Positions 5,104 through 47,480 are shown, counted from the stretch's first letter. The stretch is DNA of 64,000 nt from an uncultured Planctomycetota bacterium (GCA_963841915.1 CAWJEN010000005.1:1216001-1280000); one strand, 5' to 3'. Numbers and translations are program-made. Notes: a model not told the origin generated them from the letters alone.

Positions 5104-5264
5104 ATGCTGCGCACAGGCGGCCGCCGCGGCGCAAGGTGCAAACATGCGGAATGCCGAGCACAGGCGACGACACGCCACCGACAGTGGGTGCAGAATCGTG
5201 ATGACCACGTCACCTGGCTGCACGAATGGCGACGGACCGCCGACGCACTGGCAAGCGGCAATTG

Positions 5265-5280
5265 TGTTCCACGTGGAACA
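5265..5280. promoter_or_regulatory. parS: parS site (ParB-binding palindrome)
   Basis: Perfect palindrome TGTTCCACGTGGAACA matching the broadly conserved parS consensus. Confidence 0.9.
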
Positions 5281-5300
5281 TTGGGGACTCGGCCGGCAGC

Positions 5301-5332
5301 AAAAACCCCCGCCGGCGTCAGCCAGCGGGGGT
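5301..5332 (-). terminator. Probable intrinsic terminator downstream of xylB
   Basis: Minus strand reads ACCCCCGCTGGC-TGAC-GCCGGCGGGGGT followed by TTTT. Confidence 0.6.
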
Positions 5333-5337
5333 GAGAT

Positions 5338-5353
5338 TGTTCCACGTGGAACA
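5338..5353. promoter_or_regulatory. parS: parS site (ParB-binding palindrome)
   Basis: Perfect palindrome TGTTCCACGTGGAACA. Confidence 0.9.
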
Positions 5354-5406
5354 TTTGCTGATCCCCAACGACCCTTGGCCGCCGCGGCGCAGCGCTTAAA
5401 ACGGCC

Positions 5407-6963
5407 TCACTCTTCGAGCGACTTGATGTCGGCGAAGGTTTCTGCCAGGCGGCCGTACATCTTGTTGTAGACCTCGGCGTGCTTCTGGTAAGCCTCCATC
5501 TGCCGCTTCTTGGGGCGGACGGTGTCGCCGAGCTTGATGAGCTGCTTGCAGGCGGCCGGGACCGACTTGTACGTGCCATTGCCGACACCAGCAAGCAGGG
5601 CGGCACCGAAGGCAGCGCCTTCTTCGCTATTGGTCTGCGAGACCGGTGCGTTGTAGACGTCGGCCTGCATCTGACGCCACATAGCGCTCTTGGCACCGCC
5701 GCCGGTCGTGCGGACCTGCTTGACGGGGACAGACATCTCGTCCCGCATGATCTGCAGCATGCGACCCATGTTGTACGTGACGCCCTCGACGAGGCTGCGG
5801 ACCATGTGGCCCTGGCCGTGACGGCGGGTCAAGCCGATCCAGCTGGCGCGGGCATCGGGGTCGTTGTACGGGCACCGCTCACCGGTCAGGAACGGCAGGA
5901 AGAACAGTCCTTCGCTGCCCAGCGGCACCTTGTCGGCGTCGGCGAGCAGCTTCTTGAAGATGTCGTCGGCACCCTTAGCGACCTTCTTGGGTGTTTTGCC
6001 TCCCGAAGAGGCCAATTCGTCTGCGTACCACTGCAAGCTACCCGCAGCCGAGAGCATGCAGCCGAAGTTGATGTAGGCATTGGGCACCGCGTGACACATT
6101 GTGGCGATGCGGCCCGGGTTGGTGCCCTTCGAATCGATCGTGATGCGGTCGCTGTGGGCGGCCATGACGCCGCCCGTACCGAGGTTGGCATTGATGAGGC
6201 CGGCTTCGACGACGCCCATGCCGACCGCACCAGTCATGACGTCACCGCTGCCTGCAAAGACGGGCGTGCCTGCGTTGAGGCCGAGGTTGCTGGCAGCTTC
6301 CTTCTCAAGTTCGCCGGTCTGTTCGGTCGACTCGACGACGTCCGGCAGGATCTCACGGTTGATCTTGAGCAGATCGATGAGTTCATCGCACCACAGACGG
6401 CGACGGATGTCGAGCAGGCACATGCCGCTGGCGTCGCCGACGTCCGTGACGTACTGACCGGTCATGCGGAAGCGGACGTAGTCCTTGGGCAGGACGACCT
6501 TGTGCAGGCGAGCGAAGCGTTTGGCTTCGTTCTTCTTGAACCACAGGATCTTGGGCAGCGTGTACCCGGTCAGCGGCAGGTTACCGACGAGGTCGAGCAT
6601 CTGGCGTGGGCCACCTGCTTTTTCGAGGATCTCGTCACATTGCTCGCCGGTCCGCTGGTCGTTCCAGAGGATGGCGGGGCGCAGGACGCGTCCTTTTTCG
6701 TCGAGGAAGACGCCGCCGTGCATCTGGCCCGATAGGCCGATGCCGACGATGTCGTCCTTGCTGACCTTGGCCGCTTTAAGCGCACCGCGGATGGACTTTT
6801 GAACGGCAGACCACCATTCAAGCGGGTCTTGCTCGGTCCAGCCGGGCTTGGGTGTCTGAAGAGAATGTTCGCTGGTGGCAGTGCCGGCAACCTTGCCGTC
6901 GGGTCCCAGGACGAGTGTTTTCGTACCGCTGGTGCCGATGTCGATGCCGAGGAGGTGAGGCAT
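5407..6963 (-). CDS. xylB: Xylulokinase (FGGY family)
   Basis: LGIDIGTSGTK, GLSGQMHG, RPAILWNDQR, FLPFLTGERCP, GGGAKSAMWRQMQAD. Confidence 0.9.
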   Translation of the reverse strand: MPHLLGIDIGTSGTKTLVLGPDGKVAGTATSEHSLQTPKPGWTEQDPLEWWSAVQKSIRGALKAAKVSKDDIVGIGLSGQMHGGVFLDEKGRVLRPAILWNDQRTGEQCDEILEKAGGPRQMLDLVGNLPLTGYTLPKILWFKKNEAKRFARLHKVVLPKDYVRFRMTGQYVTDVGDASGMCLLDIRRRLWCDELIDLLKINREILPDVVESTEQTGELEKEAASNLGLNAGTPVFAGSGDVMTGAVGMGVVEAGLINANLGTGGVMAAHSDRITIDSKGTNPGRIATMCHAVPNAYINFGCMLSAAGSLQWYADELASSGGKTPKKVAKGADDIFKKLLADADKVPLGSEGLFFLPFLTGERCPYNDPDARASWIGLTRRHGQGHMVRSLVEGVTYNMGRMLQIMRDEMSVPVKQVRTTGGGAKSAMWRQMQADVYNAPVSQTNSEEGAAFGAALLAGVGNGTYKSVPAACKQLIKLGDTVRPKKRQMEAYQKHAEVYNKMYGRLAETFADIKSLEE

Positions 6964-7061
6964 AAGACGGCACAAGCTAGCGGGTTGTAAGGAAAAGTGA
7001 AAATCGGCAGCGCTTACGACACGAAGATTCTCCCGCCGACCGGCGGCGCTACCCTCGCCGC

Positions 7062-8966
7062 GTGCTGCTTTCGGCTGAGAATCTGACCCACGCCATAGGC
7101 ACCCGACGCCTCTTCAATGGGCTCTCGCTCCGCCTCGATCGCGGCGAACGGGTCGGCTTCGTCGGTGACAACGGCACCGGGAAAACCACCCTCATCCGCT
7201 GCCTGACGAAGGAGTTCGAGCCCGACGACGGCCGAATCAGCGTCGCCCGCGGCGTTTCGATCGGTCACCTCAAGCAGGACCCGGACTTCCCGGCGGGTCA
7301 GAGCGTCATCGACGTGGCCGAAGGGGCTTTTGCCGAGTTGCACGATTTGGCCGGTCAGCTTCGGGTACTCGAGCACGACATGTCGGGCGACGACGCCGAC
7401 GCTGCGATGAAGAAGTACGAGAAGGTCAGCCACGCGTTCGAAGAAGCAGGTGGGTACGCTTGGAGGCATAAACTCGAAGCGGCACTCGACGGGGTAGGGC
7501 TCGAGCGTTCTACGTGGAACAGAGACGTCGACCAACTCAGCGGCGGGCAGCGGTCGCGTCTGCAGCTCGCCCGGCTGCTCGTCGACGCGCCTGACGTGCT
7601 GCTGCTCGACGAGCCGACAAACCACCTCGATCTCGCAGCCATCGAATGGCTCGAAAATGAGCTCGGCCGCTTTACCGGGGCGGCGCTCATCATCAGCCAC
7701 GACAGGTTCCTGCTCGACAGGCTCGCCACGCGAATCGATCACCTCGAGCGGGGGAGCATCAAGAGCTACCCTGGCAACTACGCGGCTTTCCTGAAGCAGG
7801 CCGAGGCCGACGAGCTGGCACGCGGGCGTGCTTTCGAGAAGCAGCAGAAGGACATCGACAAGCAGGCCGAGTACGTCCGAAGGTTCAAGGCCGGTCAGCG
7901 TGCCCGCCAGGCCAAGGGTCGCGAGAAGCGGCTCAACCGGCTTCTGGGTAGCGACGAGCTTGTGGCAGACGCGACGAAAAAGTCGTCGATGCACCTGAGC
8001 TTCGTGACGGACGCGGTCAAGAGCGATCGCATCCTCAAGGTGAGCGGCCTCAAGAAGTCGTTCAGCGGGCAGCCGCCGTTGTGGCAGGGCATCGGCTTCG
8101 AGGTGGCCCCAGGTGATCGGATCGGCATCGTCGGGCCCAACGGCTGTGGCAAGACGACGCTGCTTCGCTGCCTCGTCGGCGACGCCGATGCCGACGCGGG
8201 TGAGGTACGTTGGGGACCGAAGCTGTCGCTGGGCTACTACGACCAACGGTTGGAGGACTTTGAGCCGGAAAACACGGTGCTGGACGAGTTGTACCCCGAT
8301 GCCGTCGAGGCAGGCCTGTCGGAGCACGGTCTGCGTGATGCCCTCGGTGCCATGCACTACAGCGGCAACGACGTGCACAAGCCGATGGCAGCCCTGTCAG
8401 GTGGCGAGCGGGCACGGGTCGCCCTGACCCGGCTGCTGCTCAAGAAGGCCAACGTGCTCGTGCTCGACGAACCGACGAACCACCTCGACGTCGCCAGTCG
8501 TGAGGCGCTCGAGCGGGCACTACGTGGCTACGACGGGACGATCATCAGCGTCAGCCACGACCGCTGGTTCCTTGACCGGGTGGCAGACCGGCTGGTGGTC
8601 TTCGAACCGCCACAGATTGTTGACTTCCGTGGCGGCTGGCAGTCTTGGCTGGAGCACCGCGCTGCCGCCAAAGAGGCTCCGCAGCAGGCGGCGTCGCTGA
8701 AGCCCAAAGCCTCGGCCATGCCGAGCAAGAAGAAAGACCCGGCCAAGAACAAGTTCCTTCGTCCCTACGGCAGCATGGCCACGCCGAAGCTCGAAGAGCG
8801 GATCACGCACGTCGAGATCACGCTGAGCGAGCTGCAGGAGGACTTTGCGACAGGCGTCGGCATGAGCGATCCGGCCGCTGCAAGGGAAAAGACGGCCGAA
8901 CTCGAACGGCTGACGACGGAGCTGAGCCAGCTCGAAGAGGAATACTTCAATCGGGCGGACGCTTAG
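7062..8966 (+). CDS. ABC-F family ATP-binding protein (Uup/YheS-like)
   Basis: Two ABC domains (GDNGTGKTT, LSGGQ, LLLDEPTNHLD; GPNGCGKTT, LSGGE), no TM segments, C-terminal coiled coil. Confidence 0.92.
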   Translation: MLLSAENLTHAIGTRRLFNGLSLRLDRGERVGFVGDNGTGKTTLIRCLTKEFEPDDGRISVARGVSIGHLKQDPDFPAGQSVIDVAEGAFAELHDLAGQLRVLEHDMSGDDADAAMKKYEKVSHAFEEAGGYAWRHKLEAALDGVGLERSTWNRDVDQLSGGQRSRLQLARLLVDAPDVLLLDEPTNHLDLAAIEWLENELGRFTGAALIISHDRFLLDRLATRIDHLERGSIKSYPGNYAAFLKQAEADELARGRAFEKQQKDIDKQAEYVRRFKAGQRARQAKGREKRLNRLLGSDELVADATKKSSMHLSFVTDAVKSDRILKVSGLKKSFSGQPPLWQGIGFEVAPGDRIGIVGPNGCGKTTLLRCLVGDADADAGEVRWGPKLSLGYYDQRLEDFEPENTVLDELYPDAVEAGLSEHGLRDALGAMHYSGNDVHKPMAALSGGERARVALTRLLLKKANVLVLDEPTNHLDVASREALERALRGYDGTIISVSHDRWFLDRVADRLVVFEPPQIVDFRGGWQSWLEHRAAAKEAPQQAASLKPKASAMPSKKKDPAKNKFLRPYGSMATPKLEERITHVEITLSELQEDFATGVGMSDPAAAREKTAELERLTTELSQLEEEYFNRADA

Positions 8967-8981
8967 CGGTTAAGCGCTGTC

Positions 8982-9627
8982 ATGAGCGACACGACCGTCG
9001 ACCGGCCGGAGCGGTTCCTCGCGACAGAGGAGGAGTATTTGGTGTTCGAATCCGAAGCCGCAGAGAAGCACGAGTGGATCGACGGAGAAGTGCGACCGTT
9101 GCGTCGCTGGGGCCGAGGGCATGGCGGGTAAGACCTTCTCGCATCTACTGATGGTGTCGAGCATGGTTCGGAAGCTGGACAATCGGTTGGATGGGAAAGG
9201 ATGTCTGGCGTTGACGTCAAACTTGCGTGTCAAGGCGCCCGTCTTCCGGCGGCAGATAGGCCAGCGCGGCCTTTACACGTATCCCGATGTGACTGTGGTC
9301 TGCGGCAAGCCACAGCTTGAGAAGGGCGGTCCGGCTTCCGAAACGCTTATCAATCCGACGCTCCTTGTTGAGGTGCTCTCGCCGTCAACGGAAGCGAACG
9401 ACTTCGGGCAGAAGTTCGAACGCTACCGCACGATCGAGTCCTTCCGCGAGTACGTGCTCGTCAGCCAGAAGATGCCCCACGTCAATGTGTTCTTGCGGCG
9501 TGACAACGGCGACTGGAAAATCGACCAGTACGAAGGCCTTGAGGCAACGGCTTGATTCGAGTCCATCGACGTCGACCTGCCACTCAGCGAAATCTACGAC
9601 GGCGTGATCTTCGGAGCCGACCTTTAA
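8982..9627 (+). pseudogene. Uma2 family endonuclease, disrupted
   Basis: N-terminus (EEYLVFE..EKHEWIDGE) is in a different frame from the core (YPDVTVVCG, VEVLSPST, EYVLVSQ). An in-frame TGA at 9553-9555 precedes the typical tail FESIDVDLPLSEIYDGV. Confidence 0.75.
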
Positions 9628-10502
9628 GCCGCCCTCTGCGATAGCTTCATGGGATCGGCGTCTGTTGCTTCGTCCATTTCGGTGACGCGGATCGGCTTGA
9701 GGTCGAACTTGGGGTTCTGCCCCATGAATCGTGCCGGGTTGTTGTGGAAGATCTCTGTCAGGAGCTGTTCTTCCCAACCACGGCGGCGGCATTCGAGGAT
9801 GCAGGCCTGCAGCGTGAACGGGTCGCTCGGACCCCAATCGGCTGAAGAATTTACCAGCATCCGCTCGTGGCCGTACATCTCCATGACGTCTGCTGCCCGC
9901 TCGCCCGTCATCTTCGTCAGCGGATAAAGCGTCATGCCCGCCCAGAAGCCGGCGTCAAGCACGGCCTTGACCGTGTGCTCCTCGACGTGATCCACCCAAA
10001 CGCGAGACGGGTCGAGGCCAGCCTTCGTGAAGTTCTCAAGGACTTCAAGCACCTTGGTCGTGCCGTGCAGCTTGTCGCCCAGGTGCGGCGTGTGGATGAG
10101 AACGAGCTGGTCGTGATCGAGCGCCAGCTGGAAATGCCACTCGAGGCTCTGAATCTCGTTCGGCGTTGACTTGTGCAAGCCAGTCTCACCGATGCCGAGC
10201 ACCGTCGGCTTATCGAAGTACGCCGGCATCTCGTCGAGCACGGAGCGGGTGAGCGACGGGTTCTCGGCCTCTTTGGGATTCACTGCCAGCCAGCAGTAGT
10301 GCTTGATGCCGTAGTCGGCAGCGCGGGTCGGCTCGAACTCGCTGATCTGCTTGAAGTAGTCGAGAAATGTCTCGGGATGATCGCGATCGAAGCCAGCCCA
10401 GAAAGCGGGTTCGGCGACGGCAACGACGCCGCTCATGGCCATCCGCTCGTAATCCTGTGCGGTACGGGCGATCGCGTGGTAGTGGGGCTGGATGACGTAC
10501 AT
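9624..10502 (-). CDS. TatD family hydrolase (EboB-like)
   Basis: PHYH, EPAFW, AVNPKEA, IGETG, IHTPH, DHVEE and NSSADWG motifs. Confidence 0.85.
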   Translation of the reverse strand: MYVIQPHYHAIARTAQDYERMAMSGVVAVAEPAFWAGFDRDHPETFLDYFKQISEFEPTRAADYGIKHYCWLAVNPKEAENPSLTRSVLDEMPAYFDKPTVLGIGETGLHKSTPNEIQSLEWHFQLALDHDQLVLIHTPHLGDKLHGTTKVLEVLENFTKAGLDPSRVWVDHVEEHTVKAVLDAGFWAGMTLYPLTKMTGERAADVMEMYGHERMLVNSSADWGPSDPFTLQACILECRRRGWEEQLLTEIFHNNPARFMGQNPKFDLKPIRVTEMDEATDADPMKLSQRAA

Positions 10503-10510
10503 GCGTTAAT

Positions 10511-10759
10511 TCAGTCGGAGACGTCGGAGTAGATGCGTGCGATGCGTTCTACCCGGCCGGGGCCGTCGGTGGCCAGCACCTTTAAGCTCTCGTGGATGCG
10601 CAACAGCTTGGCGTCGCTGCCGTCGTCACCGTGAGCGGCCTTGCCGCGGTCGTGGCGGTCGAGAATGGCTGCAATTTCAAGCAATTTGCAACGCACCTCA
10701 AGCCCATACGCATCGGCTACGGCGGCGGGTTTCATCGTCGGGACCTGGGGCATCGGCAT
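10511..10759 (-). CDS. Small hypothetical protein
   Basis: Compact ORF between yidD and the TatD gene on the same strand, with helical LEVRCKLLEIAAILDR. Start uncertain. Confidence 0.6.
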   Translation of the reverse strand: MPMPQVPTMKPAAVADAYGLEVRCKLLEIAAILDRHDRGKAAHGDDGSDAKLLRIHESLKVLATDGPGRVERIARIYSDVSD

Positions 10760-10777
10760 CTGAATACGCAGCACGGG

Positions 10778-10990
10778 TTACGGCGGATCGTATCCCGATC
10801 CGCCCCAAGGCTGACATCGGGCGATTCGTCGCAGCCCGAGCAGCCCGCCTCGCCAAGGCCCGTGCTTTTCCACGGCAAGCAGCATGTACTCGCTGCAGGA
10901 CGGTGTGAAGCGGCACTGGCCACCGATGAACGGGCGAAGCACCGCGCGGTACACGCTGATGATCAGGCGGATGACGGCCGAGGCGAGCAC
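10778..10990 (-). CDS. yidD: Membrane protein insertion efficiency factor YidD
   Basis: CRFTPSCSEY...HG..RG..RRIARCQPWGGSGYDP signature. Confidence 0.9.
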   Translation of the reverse strand: MLASAVIRLIISVYRAVLRPFIGGQCRFTPSCSEYMLLAVEKHGPWRGGLLGLRRIARCQPWGGSGYDPP

Positions 10991-11074
10991 GGCCGCATGT
11001 TACAGAACAAGCCGCTCTTCCAGGTAAAACGGTCCTGCTTCACCGCAACCAACTATGCGATACCATGGCATCCG

Positions 11075-12602
11075 ATGGCCCGCTATGTCTTTCCGATCCT
11101 GTTCGTGGTCGTGCTCATTCTGCCGTTCGCCTTGCGACTGGCCGTCGGTGGGACAGCAGAGGCCGAGGGTCAGACGACGGCCAGGCTCACCATCGTCACG
11201 CCACACAACGGTGACATCAAGCAACAGTACGAGGCCGCATTCCGCGCCTGGCACACCGAGAAATACGGATATGCCGTTGATCTCGACTTCCGCAACATCG
11301 GCGGCACCAACGACATCGTCAAAGCGCTGACGACCTTCTACGCGCCGTACGTGATCACCGAGCAGGGCCCCGACGGCAAGGAGATTCGCCGCATGCCGCC
11401 ACCGGAGGCAATTGCCTCAGCCCCATACAATCTCGTGTGGGGCGGCGGCGACTTTGTGTTCAACATCGAGCTCGAAGGCGGAGCCAAAGCCTTGCAAGCC
11501 GTCGACCTGTCGCAAGACACCTTGAGGGCAGCGTTCCCGGAGCCGGAGCTGGCGGGTATTGCACTCTACGACCAGGATGACGACGGCATCCACTGGGTCG
11601 GCGTGTGCCTGAGCAGCTTCGGCATTGTCTACAGCCCCGACTACTACAACCGCCTTGGACTCAGTTCGCCCGAGGTCTGGGCTGATTTAGGGCGACCAGA
11701 GCTTGCGGGGCGAGTGGTGCTGGCCGACCCGGCCAAAAGTGGCAGTGCGGCAGTGGCGTACATGATGATCCTGCAGCGGGCGATGGCCGACGCCGAAGAG
11801 GCATTCTTCGAGGCGGGCAACACGAAAGAGACGAACGGGCTACGAGGCGGCAGTCGACCTCGGTTGGCGGCGGGGCATGGGCGACTTGCTGCTCATCGCT
11901 GCCAACGCGAGGTACTTCACGGACAGCGCGTCGGCGGTGCCTGCCGAGGTCAGCCATGCCAACGCCGCCGCCGGGACGGCGATCGACTTCTACGGCCGCG
12001 TTGAGGAAGAAACCGTCGGCCGCGATCGCATCCGCTATGTCTCACCCGTCGCCGCAACGGCTGTCACGCCCGATCCGGTCGCCATCTGCTACGGAACAAC
12101 GGGAGACGAACTGGTGCACGCGACCCGCTTCATCGAATTCCTTCTCACGCCCGAAGCGCAGCGGATGTGGCAGGTGCCGGGCAGTGGCGATCGGCCGCTT
12201 CGCCGAACGCCGATCCGGCAGGACATCTTCGCCGATCGCAGCGACTGGAGCGACGACGAGAACCCCTTCGCCACGAGCGGCGGCTTCAATCAGCGAAGCG
12301 AGTGGATGTCGACGTTCAGCGAGACGCGGCTCGTCTGGAAGGCGGCCTGGATCGAGGCGGGTGAGGCACTAGATTCTGCCTACGCAGCCGTTTTAGCGGT
12401 CAAGGACGACGATCGTCGTGCCGTGCTCATCGAGCAGTTTCGCGACCTACCGATCACAAGGACCGGCGTGACCAATCTGCGGGCACAGCGTAAAGGCACG
12501 GCCGAGGAAGCTCAGGCGAGCTTCATGGCTAAGCAGTCGGCAGCCTTTGCGGCTGAGTTCAGAGAGCACTTCGCCGCAGTTGAACGGGCGGCAAAGCAGT
12601 AA
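11075..12602 (+). CDS. ABC transporter substrate-binding protein (Fe3+/thiamine-type), frameshifted near 11835
   Basis: N-terminal TM/signal; LTIVTPH, WGGG, LADPAKSGSA in one frame, continuing as YEAAVDLGW..AIDFYG..TPDPVAI in the next frame. Confidence 0.75.
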
Positions 12603-13001
12603 TTAGGTGCCCGCCGGATCTGACGCGACATCGATGAAGACCGGCGGCGGCTCGACGGCGTCGGCCGGTCGACTACCCGCGTCCTTGCGGCCGCTGCCTT
12701 GGAGCCGTGATTCAGCCTTGAGCGTCAGGTCGCCGACCATCGTCATCTGACAGCTCAGCCGCAGGCCCGGCGTGCCGTCCAATTCACGGGCCTTAAGCGT
12801 TTCCTGCTCTTTGCCGGTGATCGGGCTAGCTAATCCGTCGATGACGGTAACGCGGCACGTGGTGCATTTGCCGACTCCGCCGCAGGCGTGGAGCTGATCG
12901 AGGCCTGCCTCGTCTTCGAGGGCCAACACGACCCGTTTGTCAGCCGGAACGTCGTAGGTCGAGGCACCGTCCACGGTGAGCTTGTAACTGTCCTGCTTCA
13001 T
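12603..13001 (-). CDS. 2Fe-2S ferredoxin-like protein
   Basis: CGGVGKCTTC...RLSCQ cysteine pattern. Confidence 0.85.
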   Translation of the reverse strand: MKQDSYKLTVDGASTYDVPADKRVVLALEDEAGLDQLHACGGVGKCTTCRVTVIDGLASPITGKEQETLKARELDGTPGLRLSCQMTMVGDLTLKAESRLQGSGRKDAGSRPADAVEPPPVFIDVASDPAGT

Positions 13002-14078: not shown

Positions 14079-14082
14079 CGGA

Positions 14083-38207: not shown

Positions 38208-38324
38208 CGACCTGTCGGCCACCCTGTTGTGCAAGTGCAGTTCATGGACTGCCAGTCCCGATGTTAAACGAAGGTTGGCTCCCGGCCGCGCTGCCCGGTG
38301 TTCTAAGGCGAAGTCACGGCGGGA

Positions 38325-40112
38325 TCAGCGACCTCGGTGCCGCCTGCGAAGGGCGGCAAGGCTCAGGAGGCCCAGCGACCAGGCAGGTTCAGGAACCGTC
38401 GCCGCCCACTCGTCGATGGCCGCAAGATCAGCCGATGAGCCCCCGAAACTTGCCCGCAGGAGCGCGAAGTCGAGAATGCTGACAACGCCGTCAAGGTTGA
38501 AGTCGCCGTTGGTAAAGTAGACGCGATCTGACTCTCCAAATCTGTCTCGAAGGATGGCAAAATCGAGAATGGTGACGACGCCGTCGAGGTTTGCGTCCCC
38601 TGGCACGACATCATCTATGTCAGGAGGCGTCCAGAGAACTATCGCGTTGTCTTCGTTCGAGTAGACCACTTCTCCGCGGTCATTGATACCGTCGCCGTCC
38701 AGACCAGTATTTCCGATGCTGGTTGACACGCCGACGCCGCCGCGACCGAGTTCCAGAAGTCCAAGCTCGTCGTCGAAGAACAACAATGCCTGCAGACCAA
38801 CGTCGTCGGAGGAATCGGTGACCGTTGCATGGAACAGCACCTGCCCGGCCTCGTTCATTGTTCTGCTGATGACGAACGGAAGCGGATCGTCGAGACTTGT
38901 GATCGTCCCGCCGCCCGGTGCGGCGTCGCCGACTTGGGCGACCACAACAGTCTCCGAAGGTCCTGCCCTGAGGATCGCATCGGTGCTGCTGGAACCGACC
39001 ACAACCTCCCCGAGGCCGACGATTTGGCCGGCATCGTTGAGGACCTCGATGTCGGTCAGGCGGTAGCCGACACCCTGAACGGTGACGCCCTGATCGATGA
39101 GCAGATGCGATGTCTGGCCATCGGTGAGAACAACTGCTCGCCGAGCACCGCCACCACCTGAACCATCCAGGACGACCGCCACCGCCACCTGTCCGCTGTT
39201 GTTCGGGCCGCTCAAGCTGGTGTCACCGGTCACCGCGTTGCTGCCGGGCAAGATGGCGGAAACGCGATTGCTGCCGACCATGCTGTTGACGGCGAGTAGT
39301 TCGATATTAACGCTGCCATCCGAGAGAATGGCCGCCCTAGGGGTGCTGCCGAACCCGCTCCCTTGAAACGCAGCAAGATAGGCGACGTGCCCCGCATCAT
39401 TGATGCTGGGCCGTCTTTGCAACGGAATGCTGATCACGGAGCCGGCAACTGTCGTGTCTTGAAACCTGGCGACGAGGGATCGCGTCGCTCCGTCACCAAC
39501 GACGATCGGGAAACCGACGACTCCGTCTACTGTGGTAACGCGTGTGGCGACTGCGCCGTTCGCGCTGATACTCGGTGTGAAGAAGTTGCGGCTTCCCGAA
39601 CCGCCACCTACGCCCTGGATATGACCGATCTCAATCACTGGCGGCGCACCGGCGACCAGTACATCACCGACCTCAACCACGGCGTCAACGATTCCGTTGC
39701 GGTATGTGTAAAGGCCGCTGACGTCGGTCACATTGTTGAAAGCCGTAAAGCCGAAGTCGCCGTTGTCGTTGAGCGATGCCGCCATGCTGCCGTCGAAAAT
39801 ATCGAAGTCATATTGCGCTCCTTCGGAAGATTGCCCCACACTTGGAATGGAAAGCTTGGCACGGCCTCCTGCGGCGGTGGTATAGACGCCACTCGTCAAC
39901 TCGATCGTGCTGAAGTCAATCGCGGCGACAGCGATGACACCGTTGTTATTGATGATTGGCACTTGCCTGAAGGGCACCAGTAGCGATGCCGCAGTGGGGT
40001 CTGCCGCCCCAGGACCGATGACGATTTCGCGAGTAGCAATCGCCTGCCCCCGCGCCACCGAAACGCAAGAGACAAGCGTGCAGCCGAAAACGATATGTCG
40101 AATCATCCCCAT
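38325..40112 (-). CDS. Secreted NxxG-repeat (beta-propeller-like) protein with dockerin-type domain and PEP-CTERM sorting signal
   Basis: Signal peptide; about 8 repeats such as LNDNGDFGF and INDAGHVAY; paired GD(A/F)NLDGVV.ILDFA; VPEP-hydrophobic-RRR tail. Confidence 0.85.
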   Translation of the reverse strand: MGMIRHIVFGCTLVSCVSVARGQAIATREIVIGPGAADPTAASLLVPFRQVPIINNNGVIAVAAIDFSTIELTSGVYTTAAGGRAKLSIPSVGQSSEGAQYDFDIFDGSMAASLNDNGDFGFTAFNNVTDVSGLYTYRNGIVDAVVEVGDVLVAGAPPVIEIGHIQGVGGGSGSRNFFTPSISANGAVATRVTTVDGVVGFPIVVGDGATRSLVARFQDTTVAGSVISIPLQRRPSINDAGHVAYLAAFQGSGFGSTPRAAILSDGSVNIELLAVNSMVGSNRVSAILPGSNAVTGDTSLSGPNNSGQVAVAVVLDGSGGGGARRAVVLTDGQTSHLLIDQGVTVQGVGYRLTDIEVLNDAGQIVGLGEVVVGSSSTDAILRAGPSETVVVAQVGDAAPGGGTITSLDDPLPFVISRTMNEAGQVLFHATVTDSSDDVGLQALLFFDDELGLLELGRGGVGVSTSIGNTGLDGDGINDRGEVVYSNEDNAIVLWTPPDIDDVVPGDANLDGVVTILDFAILRDRFGESDRVYFTNGDFNLDGVVSILDFALLRASFGGSSADLAAIDEWAATVPEPAWSLGLLSLAALRRRHRGR

Positions 40113-40158
40113 CGGAATGAAAGGTAACAGGTTGTAATGCGTTGCACCAATGACACGA

Positions 40159-40186
40159 CGGCGGCCTCCCGGTGCGGAGGCCGCCG
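40159..40186 (-). terminator. Hairpin, probable terminator after flagellin
   Basis: 11-bp stem CGGCGGCCTCC/GGAGGCCGCCG. Confidence 0.55.
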
Positions 40187-40244
40187 CGTCTGGCGGTCAG
40201 AGTCCGTCAGGACCCGCCGCCGAGCGTCAGGATGAAAGTGCCGC

Positions 40245-41642
40245 TCACTGCAGCAGCGACAGCACCTGCTGCGGGGTCGAGTTGGCCTGCGAGAGGATCG
40301 ACGTGTTGGCCTGCGTCAGAATCTGAGCGCGGGTCAAAGCGGCGGTCTCGGCGGCGAAGTCGGCGTCGCGGATCGAGCTTTCGGCAGCGGTCACGTTCTC
40401 GCGGGCGACACGAAGCGAGTTCATGTTCGTCTCGAGAACGTTCTTCTGCAAAGCACCCAGGCGGCCACGCATGGTGGCGATGCCGCCGATGGAGGCGTCG
40501 AGAATGTTCTGGGCGTCCGTCGTGTTGCCGGAGACGAGGCTGAAGGCGCCGCCGCTTCCGAGCTGGCTGAGGAAGCCGACGACGTCGTTACCGAGCTTGG
40601 CCGTGTTGACGCTCTGGATTCCGAGGTTGACCTGGCCCTGGTCGCCGACGCGGGAGCCGACCTGGAAGGTCGCACCACCACCGGTGATGTCGAAGACCTG
40701 ATCGACGGCCGTCTGGGTCAGGAAGTTGGCGGTGAGGTCGAGCTCGAGATCGAGTCCGCCGACACGGCTCTTGACGCTGAGGCCGTCGGCCTCGGCGGCT
40801 GCGCCGTTGACGGTGATGGTCGCCTCGACACCCTCGTCGCGGGTGCCGGACGCGGTCCATGTACCAGCGACGGCCTCGACGGTGACGAAGCTCTTGGCCC
40901 CGTAGCCGATCGAATCGAAGTGGACGTTACCGCCACTGACCGTGGCGCTGACACCGGTGCTGTCGGTGAGCTGGTTGACCGCAAAGGCCATCGCACTGAC
41001 GGCGGTGTTGCTGGCGAAGGTGAGCTGCTCGACGCCCTTGTTGCCACCGATGTCGAGGGTGGTGATGTTGGCGGTCGGGCCGTTACGGGTGATGCGACCG
41101 GTCTCGGCGCTGCTGGTGACGTTGACCTGAATGTTCAGCGGGCCGTTGTCGGGCAGGTTGGCACTGTTGACGCGGGCGTTGGTGACGTTGCTGGCCGTGA
41201 CGCCGCTGAGCTGGTAGTCCTTCTGGCCGTTGAGCAGCAACTCACCGTTGAACGTGGTGGTGTTGCTGATGCGGTTGATCGAGCCGAGGATGGCGTCGAC
41301 CTGAAGCTGGTTGGCTTCAATTTCTGCCGGCGAGAGGGCACCGGAGTTGGCGGCCTCGACGGTCAGGCTCTGGACTTCCAGGAGCAGCGAGTTGATCTCG
41401 GCGAGGCTGCCCTCTGCCGTGTTGATCACGTTGATGGCGCGGGCCGAATTGTCGATCGCCTGGCTGATACCGGCGACCTCGCTCCGCATGTTCTCACTGG
41501 CGATTAGGGCGGCAGGGCCGTCCTTGCCGGTGTTGATCTTCAGGCCCGTGCTGAGGCGCTGCAGGCGCATCGACAGGTCGCCGTTGTTGGTGTTGAGCGA
41601 GCGCTGCGCTTGCAGCGAATTGATGTTGGTGTTGATCCGCAT
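40245..41642 (-). CDS. fliC: Flagellin
   Basis: MRINTNINSLQAQR..RLSTGLKIN; C-terminal RGRLGALQ..ENVTAAESSIRDADFAAE..QQVLSLL. Confidence 0.96.
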   Translation of the reverse strand: MRINTNINSLQAQRSLNTNNGDLSMRLQRLSTGLKINTGKDGPAALIASENMRSEVAGISQAIDNSARAINVINTAEGSLAEINSLLLEVQSLTVEAANSGALSPAEIEANQLQVDAILGSINRISNTTTFNGELLLNGQKDYQLSGVTASNVTNARVNSANLPDNGPLNIQVNVTSSAETGRITRNGPTANITTLDIGGNKGVEQLTFASNTAVSAMAFAVNQLTDSTGVSATVSGGNVHFDSIGYGAKSFVTVEAVAGTWTASGTRDEGVEATITVNGAAAEADGLSVKSRVGGLDLELDLTANFLTQTAVDQVFDITGGGATFQVGSRVGDQGQVNLGIQSVNTAKLGNDVVGFLSQLGSGGAFSLVSGNTTDAQNILDASIGGIATMRGRLGALQKNVLETNMNSLRVARENVTAAESSIRDADFAAETAALTRAQILTQANTSILSQANSTPQQVLSLLQ

Positions 41643-41648
41643 GGAGTG

Positions 41649-41702
41649 AGACCTTCCGTGGTCTAAGAGAAAAAACGGTGTTGGCCTGGTTCATCCGTGA
41701 AC
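41649..41702 (-). promoter_or_regulatory. Two CsrA-type ANGGAN hairpins in the flagellin 5' leader
   Basis: mRNA sense: GTTC-ACGGAT-GAAC (41702-41689) and AGACC-ACGGAA-GGTCT (41664-41649); the latter overlaps the SD-like GGAAGG. Confidence 0.65.
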
Positions 41703-41837
41703 GTCGGCTGATAGCAATGTCGGTATCAGACTGTCATGGGCAACAACGCCGGACGTTGCCGGCCCACGTCCCATAAGCAGGTCCGGTAAAACAGCCGCTA
41801 CGCCTCCAGGCGGCGGCATCGCTACGCTGCCGGTCCG

Positions 41838-43835
41838 ATGCAGATCAGCACCGAGTGGCTAACCGACTTTCTTGACACCGTCCCGCCCACCGAGGCCGCC
41901 GGTGATGCGTTGACTATGGCCGGTTATCCCGTCGAAGAGGTTGAGGTCGTCGACGGCGTCGACGTCATGGACGTCGAGGTCACCAGCAATCGGCCCGACC
42001 TGCTGTGCCACCTCGGCGTCGCCCGCGAACTCGCCGCCGTGGCCGGTGGCACGTTCACGCTCACCGACGCGCAGCCACTGGAGGCGGGCGAACCACATGA
42101 CGTGCAGGTCGCCATCGAGGTAACCGACCTGTGCCCGCATTACACGGCCAGACTGCTCCGCGACATCACGATCAAGCCGTCCCCGGACCACCTCATCAAG
42201 CGGCTCACGCACGTCGGGCTCAGGCCGATCAACAACGTCGTCGACGTCACCAACTATGTCCTGTTCGAGCTGGGCCAGCCACTTCACGCCTTCGACTACG
42301 ACAAGCTCGCCGGTGGCAGAATTGTTGTGAGACTGGCAAAGCAGGGCGAAACCCTCCGCACCCTCGACGGCGTCGACCGCAAGCTCACCACAAGTGACCT
42401 CGTCATTGCCGATGCCGAAAAGCCCGTTGCACTTGCCGGCGTCATGGGTGGCGAAGCGACGGAGGTCACCGCTTCGACCAAGAACGTTCTGCTCGAGTCG
42501 GCCCGGTTCGATCCGCTGAGCGTCCGCAACACGAGCCGTCGGCTCAAGCTCATGAGCGACTCCTCATTCCGCTTCGAACGCGGCCTTGATCCCACCCTCG
42601 CCCACCGCGCCTCCCGCCGGGCAGCCTCGCTCATCCTCGACACCGCCGGTGGCACGCTCTGCAAAGGCGTCAGCGAGGCCGGTAGCGGCAACTACGAGCC
42701 CAAGCACCTGACCGTCCGCTGGGCCGCCATGAAGCGACTGCTCGGCGTCGATCTGCCACGCGAAGGCGTGATGGCGGCCCTCGACAAGCTGGGCCTGTCA
42801 CCGACGCCCACCGACGACGGCATCCAGACGACGATCCCATCGCACCGGCTCGACCTGTCGATTGAGGCCGACCTCATCGAAGAGGCCGCCCGCGTTGTCG
42901 GGTACGACAAGATCCCGCTGCGCGAAACCATCACCGTCCGCGTGCGGCCTGAAGATGTGAAGCTGCGGGCCAACGACATCGCCCGCACCGTTCTGACCGC
43001 AGCCGGGTGCGACGAGGCGATCACGTTCAGCTTTGTCAGCGACGCATTGAAGGATCTTTTTCTACCGGCAGATGCGAAGCTTCGTCGCGTCGATCCCGGC
43101 GTACGCAAGGCCGACGGTGCTCTGCGGCCGAGCGTGCTACCGGGCCTGCTCCAGTCGCTCCGTCACAACGAGACCGTCGGCAACGACAATGTCAAACTCT
43201 TCGAGATCGGCAGTGCGTTCTGGTTCGATGCGAAAGGCCCCTGCGAAGTCCGCCGGCTCGCCGTGGTCGGCGGAACCGACTACGCACGCTGCCGTGGCAC
43301 CATTGAAACGCTGCTCGAGCGGCTCGACCCGTCACGCCTCGTCCGCGTCGAGTCGGCCGACGCGGCTGGCTTTGGCAAGGGTGCGTGCGGCCGCGTCTTG
43401 TGGGGCGATGAGCCTGTCGGGCACGTCGGCCTTTGCGATGCAGCCGTCGTCAATGCTCTGGATCTTCGGCACACGCCGACCATGGCGGAACTCGACTATG
43501 ACGCGCTCGTCCGCGGCCTGAACGAGCCGACGAAGCCCGGCAGCCTCGCCAGATTCCCCGCCGCCCGCCGGGACGTGTCGCTCGTGGTCGCCGACCGCGT
43601 TTCCTACGACGAGCTGGCTGACCTTGCGACGGAGTTAAACCTCAGTGACCTCGTCGGCGTCGAGCACGGCGGCACCTACCGCGGCAAGCCCCTCGAGAAG
43701 CAGAGCAAGTCCGTCACCCTCACCCTTGTCTTCCGCCGCGACGACGCGACGGTGCCGCGTGAGCACGCAGAGGAACAGGTGGCCAGGCTCGTTAGCCTCG
43801 CGTCGCAGCGATTCGATGCCGAAGTCCGCAAGTAG
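41838..43835 (+). CDS. pheT: Phenylalanine--tRNA ligase beta subunit
   Basis: TSNRPDLL, INNVVDVTNYV..ELGQPLHAFD, LAGVMGG, RFERG, DLIEEAAR..GYD, FP...RDVS. Confidence 0.96.
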   Translation: MQISTEWLTDFLDTVPPTEAAGDALTMAGYPVEEVEVVDGVDVMDVEVTSNRPDLLCHLGVARELAAVAGGTFTLTDAQPLEAGEPHDVQVAIEVTDLCPHYTARLLRDITIKPSPDHLIKRLTHVGLRPINNVVDVTNYVLFELGQPLHAFDYDKLAGGRIVVRLAKQGETLRTLDGVDRKLTTSDLVIADAEKPVALAGVMGGEATEVTASTKNVLLESARFDPLSVRNTSRRLKLMSDSSFRFERGLDPTLAHRASRRAASLILDTAGGTLCKGVSEAGSGNYEPKHLTVRWAAMKRLLGVDLPREGVMAALDKLGLSPTPTDDGIQTTIPSHRLDLSIEADLIEEAARVVGYDKIPLRETITVRVRPEDVKLRANDIARTVLTAAGCDEAITFSFVSDALKDLFLPADAKLRRVDPGVRKADGALRPSVLPGLLQSLRHNETVGNDNVKLFEIGSAFWFDAKGPCEVRRLAVVGGTDYARCRGTIETLLERLDPSRLVRVESADAAGFGKGACGRVLWGDEPVGHVGLCDAAVVNALDLRHTPTMAELDYDALVRGLNEPTKPGSLARFPAARRDVSLVVADRVSYDELADLATELNLSDLVGVEHGGTYRGKPLEKQSKSVTLTLVFRRDDATVPREHAEEQVARLVSLASQRFDAEVRK

Positions 43836-43969
43836 ACGCCGAAAGTGGCGGTCCGTCAGCGGAACCCTCGACCTCAGCCACCCCGCTCACCTGCACTCGG
43901 GATGACAGAGAGACTTTGGGAGCAAGACGCCAATCACGTTTCTTGCTGAGGTTCAGCAGCCAGGAACAT

Positions 43970-44947
43970 TCAGCGTTGCCTGACGAATACTGCATCTGGG
44001 ACATCAAGCCGCTTCCGCGCCTCGGCCGTTTCTTCGAGGAAGCGAAGCCCGTCCTGCCAGTAGCCGGCCGTCGGCTTCAGACCTTTGACTTCGCGCTGCC
44101 AGTAGGCGTTGAGCCGTTCCATGGCCCGCTCGCGCACGTACTTGGCCATGCACGACGCCGCTGCCGTCGGCAGGCAGAGCGACTCGCCTTTCTCCGCGAA
44201 CGTCAGCCGCGCCTTCGCCTCACCGCGAGTCAGCAGGTACGTGCTTGTGCCGTCCGACTCGTCGAGCACCGTCAGCTCCCAGGCTTCGAACATCGTCCTT
44301 AGAAATGAGCCGTAGTGCGACCTGCCGCCTTGGCGATCAAGCACGACGTACAGCCCACCGGGCGAGGCGGCATGGGCCTCCATCAGGTCGTATAGCAGCG
44401 ATGCAACGACGGTCTGCAACGCGGCCGCCTTGTTGCGGGTCTTGTTGCAAAGCTCGTTGTACTGCCCCTCGAACAGGGCCCGCACGGTCGGCCGCAGCAG
44501 CTCGACACCTGTCGCGTCGGCTTCGTGCCTCACCGCATTGACGGAGATGCCCAGCGTCGTCGGGCTGATGCTCGCCGGGTGCGTCTCTTTCGGCGGCTGG
44601 GTGTACCAGGCGTAGCCGGGAAACGTCACGCCGACCGCTTCAAAAAAAGCCTCCAGCGTCTCCGCCTGCGAACCTGCCGCTGCAGTCAGCGTCAAGGCCG
44701 TCCGCTCAAGCTCGCCCGCACCCGCCTTGGCCCGGCCGGCGTAGACCTTCTTCGAGTCGGCCACGTGCAGCCGTCGGCCTGTCTTGTCACGCGACTGCGA
44801 CATCGCCCGGCGAAGCAACTGCCACGCGTCTGGCGGTGACTCGCTCGTCATCGCATCGCCGTCGGGTAGACGCACCGCACAAGCCCCCACGCACAATGGC
44901 CCGAGCAACGGCCCGAATCCTGCTTCATCAATGCCGGCCAGAATCAT
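43970..44947 (-). CDS. RNase HII-like protein
   Basis: AGIDEAGFGPLLGPL, ADSKKV, LDRQGG, KGE..AAASCMAK..RE, GY. Longer than canonical RnhB. Confidence 0.75.
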   Translation of the reverse strand: MILAGIDEAGFGPLLGPLCVGACAVRLPDGDAMTSESPPDAWQLLRRAMSQSRDKTGRRLHVADSKKVYAGRAKAGAGELERTALTLTAAAGSQAETLEAFFEAVGVTFPGYAWYTQPPKETHPASISPTTLGISVNAVRHEADATGVELLRPTVRALFEGQYNELCNKTRNKAAALQTVVASLLYDLMEAHAASPGGLYVVLDRQGGRSHYGSFLRTMFEAWELTVLDESDGTSTYLLTRGEAKARLTFAEKGESLCLPTAAASCMAKYVRERAMERLNAYWQREVKGLKPTAGYWQDGLRFLEETAEARKRLDVPDAVFVRQR

Positions 44948-44979
44948 GGTGCTCAACGTAGCCCGAGGCCGTTAAAGAC

Positions 44980-45104
44980 GCTTGCCTGTGGCTCGCAGCC
45001 CGCCCCTTCGTGGCCATTGAGCTCGAGCCGGCGTCACAACACACCGACTGTCGAGCCTGGAGCGGCCGAGTAGGGCCATTTATGAGGCAACCACAGCGCA
45101 AAGC
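44980..45104 (-). ncRNA. Candidate structured RNA (125-nt irregular rod hairpin), family unassigned
   Basis: Nested pairings CTGTGG/CCACAG, GGCC/GGCC, GCTCGA/TCGAGC, and GTCGGTGT/ACGCCGGC (the last pairs fully only on the minus strand, via G-U). Confidence 0.4.
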
Positions 45105-45157
45105 AGAAACCCAAACCCGCGGCTCAACGAGCCGCTGGATCGGGTGACAGTTTCTGC
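45103..45157 (-). terminator. Long hairpin, possible terminator of histone-like gene
   Basis: GCAGAAAC/GTTTCTGC outer stem, GCGGCTC/GAGCCGC inner stem, followed by TTT on the minus strand. Confidence 0.45.
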
Positions 45158-45184
45158 ATCTCCCGCCTGGTCGGCTGGGGCTCT

Positions 45185-45487
45185 TTACTTCTTCTTCGAG
45201 CTCTTCTTCGCCGACTTCTTGGCTGGAGCTTTCTTGGCTGTGGTCTTCTTCGCTGGTGCCTTCTTGGTCACCTTCTTTGCCGGAGCTTTTTTAGCTGGCG
45301 ACTTCTTGGCGACCTTCTTGGCCGGAGCCTTCTTCGCCGGTGACTTCTTGGTCACCTTCTTTGCGGGAGCTTTTTTGGCAGGGGCCTTCTTCGTGACCTT
45401 CTTTGCCGGAGCCTTCTTAGCGGGTGACTTCTTGGCGGCCTTTTGGGCCGGTGCTTTCTTTGCCGTCTTCTTGGTGGACTTGGCCAT
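45185..45487 (-). CDS. Histone H1-like Lys/Ala/Pro-rich nucleoid protein
   Basis: 100 aa built almost entirely of PAKK units; 14-aa repeat KK(S/A)PAKKAPAKKV(T/A) occurs 4 times. Confidence 0.8.
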   Translation of the reverse strand: MAKSTKKTAKKAPAQKAAKKSPAKKAPAKKVTKKAPAKKAPAKKVTKKSPAKKAPAKKVAKKSPAKKAPAKKVTKKAPAKKTTAKKAPAKKSAKKSSKKK

Positions 45488-45784
45488 GTGTGTAACTCGC
45501 GAGGAGATGGGAGAGCTGTCGGGACTGTCCGACACCTCTGAGTATCACGACAAAGTGCTGGGCGCAAAGCCTTTGCGAAGTTGTCGACAGGCGCTAGTCG
45601 ATGGTGACGGCGCGTGCAAACACTTCTTTGCCGGTGCGTGGACAAACAAGTGATGCGTGGTGCATCGACTGTTGAGCCGGAGCGGGTTGAGTCTGCGTGC
45701 AGATTTTGCCGATGAACGACGCCCCGTCGGCCAAGCATGACAGCGGCGTCGCAGCGCTTGCACCATGGAACCAGCACCACCTCG

Positions 45785-47176
45785 ATGAGCCTTCGCCTTC
45801 ACGTCCGTCACCCGCTCGGCAGCAGCGTCGTCGTCCGCAGCGACGCCGACGGAAAGGTGCCGCTGGTCTTGGGACGCGGCCGCGACGTCGACATCGCCAT
45901 TGCCGGAACCGGCGTCTTTCTAAGGCATTGTGCAGTGTTTCTTGATGCCGCTCGCGGCAGGTGGCTCATCCAGGACGGCAACACCCGCGGCAAGACGAGC
46001 GTCAACGGCGTGCCTCTGTCGGGCAGTTCGCAGCCGTGCCCGTTGCTCGACGGCTTCGTCGTCACGCTCGGTGAAGGCGCTTCAGCGGCGACGCTCACCG
46101 TCGAGCAGGCGAGCGTCGACGCGGCTGAAGAAAAGGTTCCTGCACCGTCGCCGCCTGAACTTGTCGACGTTGCTTTAGAAGACGAAGGAGTCGAACCGGC
46201 TGAGGTCGTGCGGCCGACGCGGGCCGAAGATTTTGACGGCATGTTCGCGCCGGAGCCTGACACCTACGAGGACGCGACGAACGACCGCGTCGATTTCGGC
46301 GTCGTCGCTTCGCCCTCACGCCGTCGCGACACGTCGGGCGGCGGGGCGATGCTCGGCGTGCTCGTCGTCATCACGCTCGTCACAGCAACCATCGCATTGC
46401 TCGCAGCCGTTCGGCTACAGCAGGCACAAGACGAACTGGCGCGATTGAGAAATCGCACCGCGGAGAAGCGGGCGGCCCCGGACACTGAGCAGTTGCCGAC
46501 GGAGCCGACGACAACGGCGCAGCCGCAGGAGGACACGCCGCCCGCGATCAACATCAGTCTGCTACCCGACGAGACGCTTCAGACCGAGAACGAACGGCTG
46601 TCGGCTTTGGTGGATCCTGCGGGAGAAGCGGGATTTGTGGCGGGCCTGCCACCGACCGACCCGCTGCGGGCGTCGGCGGCGTGGGCGTCGGTCGTGACGC
46701 CGCGTAAACCGGCCGAACAGCTGGCGGCGTATCTCGCGTTTCAACAGCTCCCGGCCAGTCAGCAGGGGGCGCTCGGTGACGAGGTGGCCAGTCGTGAGGC
46801 GGCGTTGCTTGATCGGCTGTGGTGGCAGCAGGTGCAATCTCTGCTGGCAGAGGAAACGGCTGTCATCGACCGAACGCTGCAGACGGAGTTTGCACTGCGA
46901 GCGTTGTCGAGCGACAGCGACCCGCAGGCGGCAGAGGCACTACGCGAGCAGCTCAAGTTCGATCGGCAACGTCTCGAGCGGATCGCGGCCGAGTTGGAGG
47001 ATCGAATGCAGTATCACGCCGGTGAGGTGCCGAACTTGACGGACGCTCAGCAGCTCGATCGACTTCGCGGTACGCGGGACGAGGTGGCTTACGAGCAATG
47101 GCGGCTGCAGGTGCTGCGCGTGGTGCTGGCGCAGGGGCGATTGCCCTGGGACGAAGACGAAGCGTCGGCGGAGTAG
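45785..47176 (+). CDS. FHA domain membrane protein
   Basis: LGRG..DI...RHC..WLIQD..GKTSVNG FHA pattern; single TM helix; helical C-terminal region. Confidence 0.75.
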   Translation: MSLRLHVRHPLGSSVVVRSDADGKVPLVLGRGRDVDIAIAGTGVFLRHCAVFLDAARGRWLIQDGNTRGKTSVNGVPLSGSSQPCPLLDGFVVTLGEGASAATLTVEQASVDAAEEKVPAPSPPELVDVALEDEGVEPAEVVRPTRAEDFDGMFAPEPDTYEDATNDRVDFGVVASPSRRRDTSGGGAMLGVLVVITLVTATIALLAAVRLQQAQDELARLRNRTAEKRAAPDTEQLPTEPTTTAQPQEDTPPAINISLLPDETLQTENERLSALVDPAGEAGFVAGLPPTDPLRASAAWASVVTPRKPAEQLAAYLAFQQLPASQQGALGDEVASREAALLDRLWWQQVQSLLAEETAVIDRTLQTEFALRALSSDSDPQAAEALREQLKFDRQRLERIAAELEDRMQYHAGEVPNLTDAQQLDRLRGTRDEVAYEQWRLQVLRVVLAQGRLPWDEDEASAE

Positions 47177-47336
47177 CGGTGCGCCGCGGCGGCCGCCTTG
47201 GCGGCGGCGAGAGACGTCCGAATGCCTCTCGCTACGAACGTCGTGTCACGCAGCAGGCAGGCGAAAAGCCACAGAAGTGGTGTAGAAAAAGCTGCACCGC
47301 GGACGACCCGCCGACGCACTTGACGGGCCGGCCGAA

Positions 47337-47352
47337 GGTTCCACGTGGAACA
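47337..47352. promoter_or_regulatory. parS: parS site (1 mismatch)
   Basis: GGTTCCACGTGGAACA. Confidence 0.8.
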
Positions 47353-47409
47353 TTCTCCACTGGCGGGCGAGCTCAAACCCTCGCCACGCACGGCAGAGCG
47401 GGTTGCCAA

Positions 47410-47425
47410 TGTTCCACGTGGAACA
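47410..47425. promoter_or_regulatory. parS: parS site
   Basis: Perfect TGTTCCACGTGGAACA within the 20-bp palindrome AATGTTCCACGTGGAACATT. Confidence 0.9.
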
Positions 47426-47480
47426 TTCTGCTCCAAAATCGGCCGCCAATCCATTGGCGGCCAAATCGGCGCAGCGCGTT

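Follow-up and report, generated by a model that had tools for sequence, protein, structure and literature searches.

The window analysed here, a 64,000-nt stretch of DNA from the genome of an uncultured planctomycete (G000; 3.63 Mb, 6 contigs, 94% complete), carries two copies, A and B, of an oriented cassette of ca. 285 bp that contains a pair of parS sites, the recognition sites of the chromosome partitioning protein ParB. Both belong to a genome-wide lattice of 64 cassettes, 59 with two parS sites and five, assigned by eye, with one. Cassettes are flanked on one side by a ripple in GC skew with a period of 7 kb, and the box found at their ends also precedes terminase and phage-head genes. 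From these sequence features we lean slightly towards reading the cassettes as ParB-marked start (pac) sites from which a gene transfer agent (GTA) would package DNA one way by headfuls. That a centromere system has been rebuilt as an address system for bacterial sex, in which about 60 oriented ParB cassettes together with a phage-head control box start a one-way 7-kb series tiling the chromosome, and in which a periodic mutation footprint records past transfers and gives the headful size with no need for a culture, is a broader proposal that we regard as evenly balanced. Whether or not packaging proves correct, an oriented lattice of parS cassettes across the genome, accompanied by a mutation footprint on one side, demands explanation.

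The parS 16-mer of G000 is the 16-bp palindrome of the parS consensus, and an identical sequence is given for Pseudomonas putida in the available text of PMC7022226. Sites with at most one mismatch to TGTTCCACGTGGAACA number 154 and are found on five of the six contigs, with 59 pairs 58-86 bp apart; 123 sites are exact, compared with at most 22 in any of 400 genomes from the rest of the phylum. The mean gap between cassettes is 54 kb, with a coefficient of variation of 0.52 versus 0.95 for random placement, a value attained in 0 of 5000 trials, and one cassette sits within the parB cluster. A preliminary description of the window had named four parS 16-mers, all of which are present (Table 1); the window contains 5 parS matches versus 0.22 expected, and 0 of 100 shuffles attain 5. 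Its suggestion that the parS pairs are part of a larger dispersed element is supported by the cassette family, of which A and B represent 2 of 64 members, and by the alignment of A with B after masking of parS, which scores 144 versus 73.5 ± 10.4 for 300 shuffles (best 105, z = 6.8). The convergent-gene setting described for the two window copies is correct for both but does not extend to the genome, where 22 cassettes lie between convergent, 30 between tandem and 7 between divergent genes (n = 59, rough gene calls); the calls used for gene context and for the skew tests are our own codon-model calls and are uncurated. Orientation tied to the replichore was considered and ruled out, as cassette orientation shows no link to far-field skew (p = 0.91). 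The cassette pattern has no match in viral contigs and 57 matches in genome contigs, 19 of them from one public assembly labelled Tepidisphaerales; the other 38 come singly from unrelated taxa and were treated as chance. Since the assembly with many matches bears that label, the host genus probably belongs to Tepidisphaerales (Planctomycetota). A full L palindrome without parS is found at G000:C5:615760 (L059:7760-7786), between DinB-family and oxidoreductase genes, and is perhaps a decayed cassette.

Cassettes are arranged in the order L palindrome, poorly conserved spacer of ca. 90-100 bp, motif M, parS1, parS2 and half box R. Between parS1 and parS2 lie 42-70 bp and, in most copies, 21-43 bp separate parS2 from R. 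Distances, which change by whole helical turns, are 114-116 or 123-126 bp for L-M, mostly 96-99, 106-108 and 117 bp for M-parS2, 129-131, 139-143 and 150-151 bp for M-R, and 259-262, 268-273 and 279-283 bp for L-R. The L-M, M-parS2, parS2-R and L-R distances are stepped by one helical turn in a 10-bp register (Rayleigh R of 0.79-0.91 versus 0.12 for an unquantised null, with 0 of 5000 null trials matching the observed value for each distance). This shared register of L, M, parS2 and R is consistent with the earlier idea of a phased nucleoprotein platform carrying additional putative binding sites. In contrast, parS1 floats, with spacings to parS2 of 65-68 or 73-76 bp in most copies. Both window pairs are indeed 73 bp apart with parS1 offset by 161 bp in each element, but the fixed 73-bp geometry proposed from them was not sustained, this spacing being found in only 8 of 59 pairs. 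The inverted ends had been recognized from an 18 of 19 nt match between the left end of B and the reverse complement of the right end of A; the match is real, but what it reflects is one protein-binding-like box used twice, as a full palindrome on the left and as a half site on the right.

The cassettes are associated with a one-sided and periodic skew, measured as G over C at fourfold-degenerate sites in cassette orientation with gene-strand and codon-family effects removed. On the L side, skew lies between +0.21 and +0.25 within 1 kb of the cassette and then swings to -0.13 at 3.5-5.5 kb, +0.06 at 8 kb, -0.085 at 11 kb, roughly +0.015 at 15 kb and finally -0.055 at 18 kb, while on the R side it drops from +0.11 to zero within 3 kb. 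A damped cosine yields a period of 7.0 kb (bootstrap 6.6-7.5) and a decay of ca. 7 kb, the period being 7.2 kb on contig C5 and 6.9 kb on contig C6. Successive half-waves hold in 60, 55 and 47 of 63 and in 42, 39 and 36 of 61 cassettes. Transcription or codon bias was rejected as the cause of the skew: both were corrected out, and 142 cassette-free convergent junctions are flat and lack the ripple. In a second species of the genus (G004), 18 cassettes, mostly located at other genes, give the same curve (7.4 ± 0.45 kb, 17 of 18); this test omits 2 of 20 loci without a match to the cassette pattern. In 55 of 63 cassettes the L side has the higher GC content at fourfold sites, an excess that fades over ca. 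20 kb. Mean gaps are 76.6 kb where L sides face each other (n = 14), 50.9 kb for tandem cassettes (n = 27) and 42.3 kb where R sides face (n = 18; p = 0.0006), as predicted by a one-way process. Direction, 7-kb period and decay over two to three periods are as expected of a processive headful series with a fixed start (PMC8575950), which is the reason for reading the cassette as a pac platform. Overall, skew in G000 is weak. Two dnaA-like genes, recognized by motif only, are located at G000:C6:371297 and C6:510373, with a broad skew switch near the first; this contig is not the one carrying parB.

The box found in the cassettes occurs at few other places in G000. Eleven non-cassette matrix matches have a start codon 14-19 nt downstream, and the 5 intergenic ones among them include those before terS, the portal gene, a lysis-like cluster and a virus-like orphan. 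The boxed units are terS-terL, portal-small open reading frame-major capsid, the lysis-like cluster (a lipoprotein, a peptidase-like protein, a weak holin match and two genes common to a separate prophage) and a gene for a 213-aa orphan, with the box ending 16-17 nt upstream of their start codons. Its position is kept before the portal gene in G003 and G004, before terS in G001 and G003 and before the lysis-like cluster in G004. A sigma-54 promoter was considered as the identity of the box. The consensus of such promoters is TGGCAC-N5-TTGC; the box shares the GG-N10-GC spacing but differs in sequence and is not canonical, and the genome contains one ordinary rpoN with ordinary sigma-54 sites before groEL-like and dnaK-like genes. 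The 213-aa orphan was not found in four congeners and bears a weak likeness to C-terminal parts of phage replication initiators (scores 0.87-0.90, a lead only). A separate prophage-like block with terminase-, portal- and head-like genes, assigned by eye, lies outside the window at G000:C5:181000-200000; it is without the box, shares two genes with the boxed lysis-like cluster and falls into one of the largest cassette gaps.

TerL was matched in 94 of 141 genomes of the family, a tally that takes in a weak match in the unpublished G006, and is encoded by a single-copy open frame in 5 of 5 genomes of the genus. It was found with PHROGs and Pfam profiles, while a search with PF03354 alone gave no match. 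Portal and capsid genes are syntenic in four genomes of the genus; the capsid match of G002, a genome without lattice, is broken (G002:C17), being in pieces with a stop. The packaging genes have nonsynonymous divergence (pN) of 0.17-0.25 versus synonymous divergence (pS) of 0.46-0.58, as does xylB. The packaging and head genes are of phage origin and pass down with their host, evolving under purifying selection. A helix-turn-helix is predicted in TerS, and the solved structures closest to it, at weak E-values, are those of Sf6 TerS and of a Bacillus phage protein; a single-sequence search with TerS matched only itself, whereas a profile search returned 1936 proteins without names. Pattern search revealed no viral relative of the capsid protein, and no integrase or replication module was seen among the scanned neighbors of the packaging genes, the boxed orphan elsewhere being perhaps replication-related. 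A tRNA-Ser gene directly follows terL (L062:7292-7379), which is a common integration-site arrangement, and a GNAT-like gene precedes terS in G000 and G004.

Additional solitary parS sites are placed asymmetrically around the cassettes. Of 63 cassettes, the one at parB being left out, 39 have a satellite parS at a distance of 0.3-3 kb to the R side and none has one to the L side. Of 47 solo sites near cassettes, 20 are inside genes. Six of six satellites in genes with a compared orthologue coincide with differing residues and no indel, indicating that satellites arose by substitution, which points to selection; for one satellite-bearing gene, the G004 orthologue carries that species' own site variant in the corresponding position. 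In G004, satellites are found on the R side of 6 of 18 cassettes, and one site lies 7.5 kb to the left. The satellite was rejected as the anchor of the ripple because alignment on satellites blurs the ripple and cassettes without satellite have it too.

Comparison with related genomes links the cassette sites to ParB. G000 encodes one ParB with CTPase, helix-turn-helix and dimer domains, located within a cluster of the same parS sites; as the genome contains one ParB_N match, there is no second, Noc-like paralogue. The best ParA-like gene (AAA_31 match, 181 bits) is on a different contig from parB (L063:7354-8328 and L256), and an SMC-like gene is present. The canonical recognition helix occurs together with the canonical site in G000, G002 and G018. 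In G004 the helix is altered, and CGCTCCACGTGGAGCG is found at parB (8 sites) as well as in 16 of 19 box loci examined, with spacings of 63-65 or 74 bp and the same R box at the end. G001 and G003 share another altered helix and carry CGCACCACGTGGTGCG at parB; G003 has 7 cassettes with a variant of CGCACCACGTGGTGCG and the same box ca. 170-200 bp off. All three variant ParBs possess Asn at one helix position versus Ala in the others, and known ParB specificity residues fall in that helix region according to the available text of PMC7383237. Site and predicted ParB helix therefore vary together in 6 genomes, and the three parS variants in one genus, each with its own ParB helix, form a natural series for specificity change. 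The cassettes of G004 and G003 have a single box, and no lattice is found in G001 and G002, the latter having one cassette of G004 type. This lone cassette (G002:C57:4506-4587) has a skew footprint though the parB locus is canonical, which may reflect binning contamination or transfer. Matches to the G003 half-site in G001 were mostly coding look-alikes without box, and all 12 examined were discarded, as were 7 of 8 extra matches in G003. A flanking gene is shared with a G000 cassette by 3 of 16 cassette loci in G004 and 1 of 6 in G003, and both flanking genes by none, so that cassette positions appear mostly to differ between species. Paired parS sites without box are present in G032, G048, G083, G086 and G156; in these other members of the family or class, parS occurs in several dispersed clusters, and a TGTGCC variant is present in some of them.

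A packaging mechanism compatible with these observations can be outlined as follows. ParB would load on the parS pair and spread to the satellite, while the activator of the head genes, or TerS itself with its retained helix-turn-helix, would bind the boxes and the spacer would be wrapped and phased within the pac platform. The domesticated terminase may then make its first cut at the cassette or just right of it and move leftward, packing the chromosome one way in successive headfuls of ca. 7 kb. Pieces taken up and recombined by relatives would leave a strand-biased mutation mark at headful intervals as well as a rise in GC that fades with distance. The heritable mark would be made in recipients, for example through damage to cytosines in single strands exposed by resection, together with GC-biased conversion. 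Even cassette spacing would make the whole chromosome accessible to transfer.

Several observations weigh against this interpretation. We infer the step from ripple to packaging, and the tests here leave the mutational cause and the sign of the ripple unexplained. The L-side periodogram beyond 6 kb reaches only p = 0.02 against random anchors, and the same contrast mirrored onto the R side also gives a weak positive (39 of 64). The 7 cassettes of G003 show a strong skew switch at the cassette, but ca. 2 kb from its position in G000 and G004, with box orientation relative to parS reversed and no clear period. No tail or neck genes were recognized beside the head genes, where the search was made, a genome-wide scan for tail genes not being part of it. 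G004 has no exact box upstream of terS, one strong box is inside a glycosyltransferase gene and another precedes no recognizable phage gene. G001 lacks the lattice yet retains terminase and capsid genes, indicating that cassettes are not required for keeping those genes. The available text of PMC11841831 describes GTA TerS as lacking a DNA-binding domain and GTAs as needing no pac site. Finally, even spacing, satellites and orientation-dependent gaps suit a role in chromosome folding equally well.

Such a role would make the lattice a distributed centromere, in which ParB and SMC loaded one way at each cassette fold or segregate the chromosome in domains of ca. 55 kb, with the box as a site for a roadblock protein whose regulation is shared with phage genes. 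We consider this unlikely, though besides the three features just named it gains from sites that track the ParB helix, from the presence of one parB, a ParA-like ATPase and an SMC-like gene, and from the cassette inside the parB cluster. A folding lattice accounts for the lattice, the anatomy, the ParB match and the satellites, but not for the box regulon or the ripple: it leaves unexplained both a strand-asymmetric 7-kb wave and the constant spacing between the box and the terminase, portal and lysis-like genes that follow it in several species. Furthermore, ectopic parS is described as harmful beyond about 600 kb round the origin in the available text of PMC7333895. The cassettes could instead act as auxiliary replication origins, with local or run-off replication perhaps amplifying DNA for a transfer agent as in Bartonella. 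Like an origin, each cassette does have a skew switch close by, from C excess to G excess, and the boxed orphan has its weak resemblance to replication initiators, but this protein was not found in the congeners, R-side skew vanishes within 3 kb while the L side oscillates, the period is unexplained, and the genome has its two dnaA-like genes with a broad skew switch near one. We consider auxiliary origins quite unlikely; they could coexist with packaging, and the roles discussed here need not be exclusive.

The preliminary description had also raised a non-autonomous transposon (miniature inverted-repeat transposable element, MITE) and a possible RNA role. In a MITE, parS would be a passenger. 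Inverted ends, present in G000 as box halves, and positions mostly unshared between species, with empty orthologous sites such as that after xylB in 4 of 4 congeners, would fit a MITE. However, among 53 copies no target-site duplication of any length or offset exceeds chance and pairwise identity is 53-71% rather than near-identical, genes next to box-only sites are not transposases (in an assembly 94% complete), and congener cassettes carry one box. Register, satellites, over-even spacing and ripple moreover indicate selection, which renders a MITE very improbable. A structured RNA or bidirectional terminator repeat is the most improbable reading of all. A terminator-like hairpin is found on one strand in 16 of 59 copies and many cassette ends abut stop codons, but the window has no Rfam match, 0 of 28 consensus pairs show compensatory change (22 of the 59 copies), so that the covariation looked for across copies is absent, folding z is close to zero (48 copies) and the palindrome tracks the ParB helix. 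Identity of at most 71%, no target duplications and no RNA covariation together argue against an active MITE or an RNA.

Features of the window copies are collected in Table 1. The genes flanking both are ordinary metabolic genes. A satellite parS accompanies each copy, and both had been overlooked in the preliminary description; that of copy A is absent from the ABC-F orthologues of four congeners, which differ there in amino acids. At copy B, the first wave of the ripple is G-rich at the cassette, C-rich 1.5-6 kb off and G-rich again at 6-7.5 kb, and may correspond to the first headful. Elsewhere in the window, a dockerin-bearing DUF7453 protein adjoins a lone flagellin gene (38325-41642).

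Table 1. Features of cassette copies A and B, numbered from the first nucleotide of the window.
Feature	Position	Strand	Remarks
Cassette copy A	5108..5395	+	284 bp to end of R box core, plus 4-nt tail
L box, copy A	5108..5133		26-bp palindrome TGCGC-N6-GGCC-N6-GCGCA, equal to two overlapping half boxes
Motif M, copy A	5232..5247	+	consensus ACGACCCGCCGACGCA; shares 10-bp register with L, parS2 and R
parS1, copy A	5265..5280		
Inverted repeat between parS sites, copy A	5305..5332	-	terminator-like on minus strand
parS2, copy A	5338..5353		parS2 invariant across all 59 paired copies
R half box, copy A	5377..5395	+	GGCC-N6-GCGCA plus tail
Satellite parS, copy A	7506..7521		within ABC-F gene
GC-skew ripple, first wave, L side of copy B	39900..47400		
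Cassette copy B	47180..47477	+	
L box, copy B	47180..47205		2 mismatches
Motif M, copy B	47303..47318	+	exact
parS1, copy B	47337..47352		1 mismatch
parS2, copy B	47410..47425		
R half box, copy B	47459..47477	+	variant identical to box preceding portal gene
Satellite parS, copy B	47953..47968		in LUD-domain (lutC-like) gene

The proposed packaging starts would have consequences beyond this genome. Because the sequence yields predictions of host-selected start sites, of their direction and of a piece size, a single virome or long-read run could put these to the test, and periodic skew ripples may reveal transfer agents in uncultured microbes. No account of such an arrangement was found in the literature covered, namely openly accessible texts, titles and abstract openings, with supplements outside that scope.

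Phage packaging offers precedents for parts of the arrangement. In SPP1, TerS wraps the phased pacL/pacC/pacR region, which spans a few hundred bases, and in the transcription-coupled packaging of T4 and T7 late-gene machinery marks the packaging start; unlike the cassettes, these are single sites on a phage genome and do not involve ParB. In lateral and generalized transduction, as described in the available text of PMC8575950, host DNA is likewise packaged in a one-way headful series from a fixed start, but that start is the pac of a prophage itself or a chance look-alike and the headful is ca. 45 kb, in contrast to ca. 60 proposed host-maintained, parS-containing starts with no replicating phage behind them. 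With known GTAs (RcGTA, CcGTA, DsGTA, BaGTA, FpGTA) the system shares split syntenic head and packaging loci under purifying selection and a putative piece size of ca. 7 kb, here derived from an indirect skew footprint, that falls within the 4-9 kb packed by headfuls according to the available text of PMC11841831, PMC12946183 and PMC5786225. How GTAs choose their packaging start is treated as an open question in the parts of PMC11841831 and PMC5786225 available, which describe GTAs without pac sites and with symmetric, motif-less coverage peaks. In contrast, the footprint here runs one way from a defined cassette, and TerS keeps a predicted helix-turn-helix.

Chromosomal ParABS systems share with the cassettes the 16-bp consensus palindrome, a single ParB, a parS cluster at parB and the co-variation of site and helix. 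In the available text of PMC7333895 and PMC7022226, however, a chromosome is said to carry 1 to 20-23 parS sites located near the origin and to tolerate ectopic ones poorly, whereas here ca. 150 sites are distributed chromosome-wide and form part of a phased cassette that has an orientation, a second type of box and a polar satellite. The lattice thus breaks the rule that parS stays near the origin. Scattered ParB-family sites and specificity altered via the recognition helix are also known from Noc and its binding sites (NBS), as described in the available text of PMC7383237 and PMC7333895; unlike Noc, a second paralogue with its own site, it is the single ParB's own site that is scattered here, within a composite cassette. 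The system resembles a centromere in its recognition and lateral transduction in its footprint but fits neither definition, and the arrangement is new in kind.

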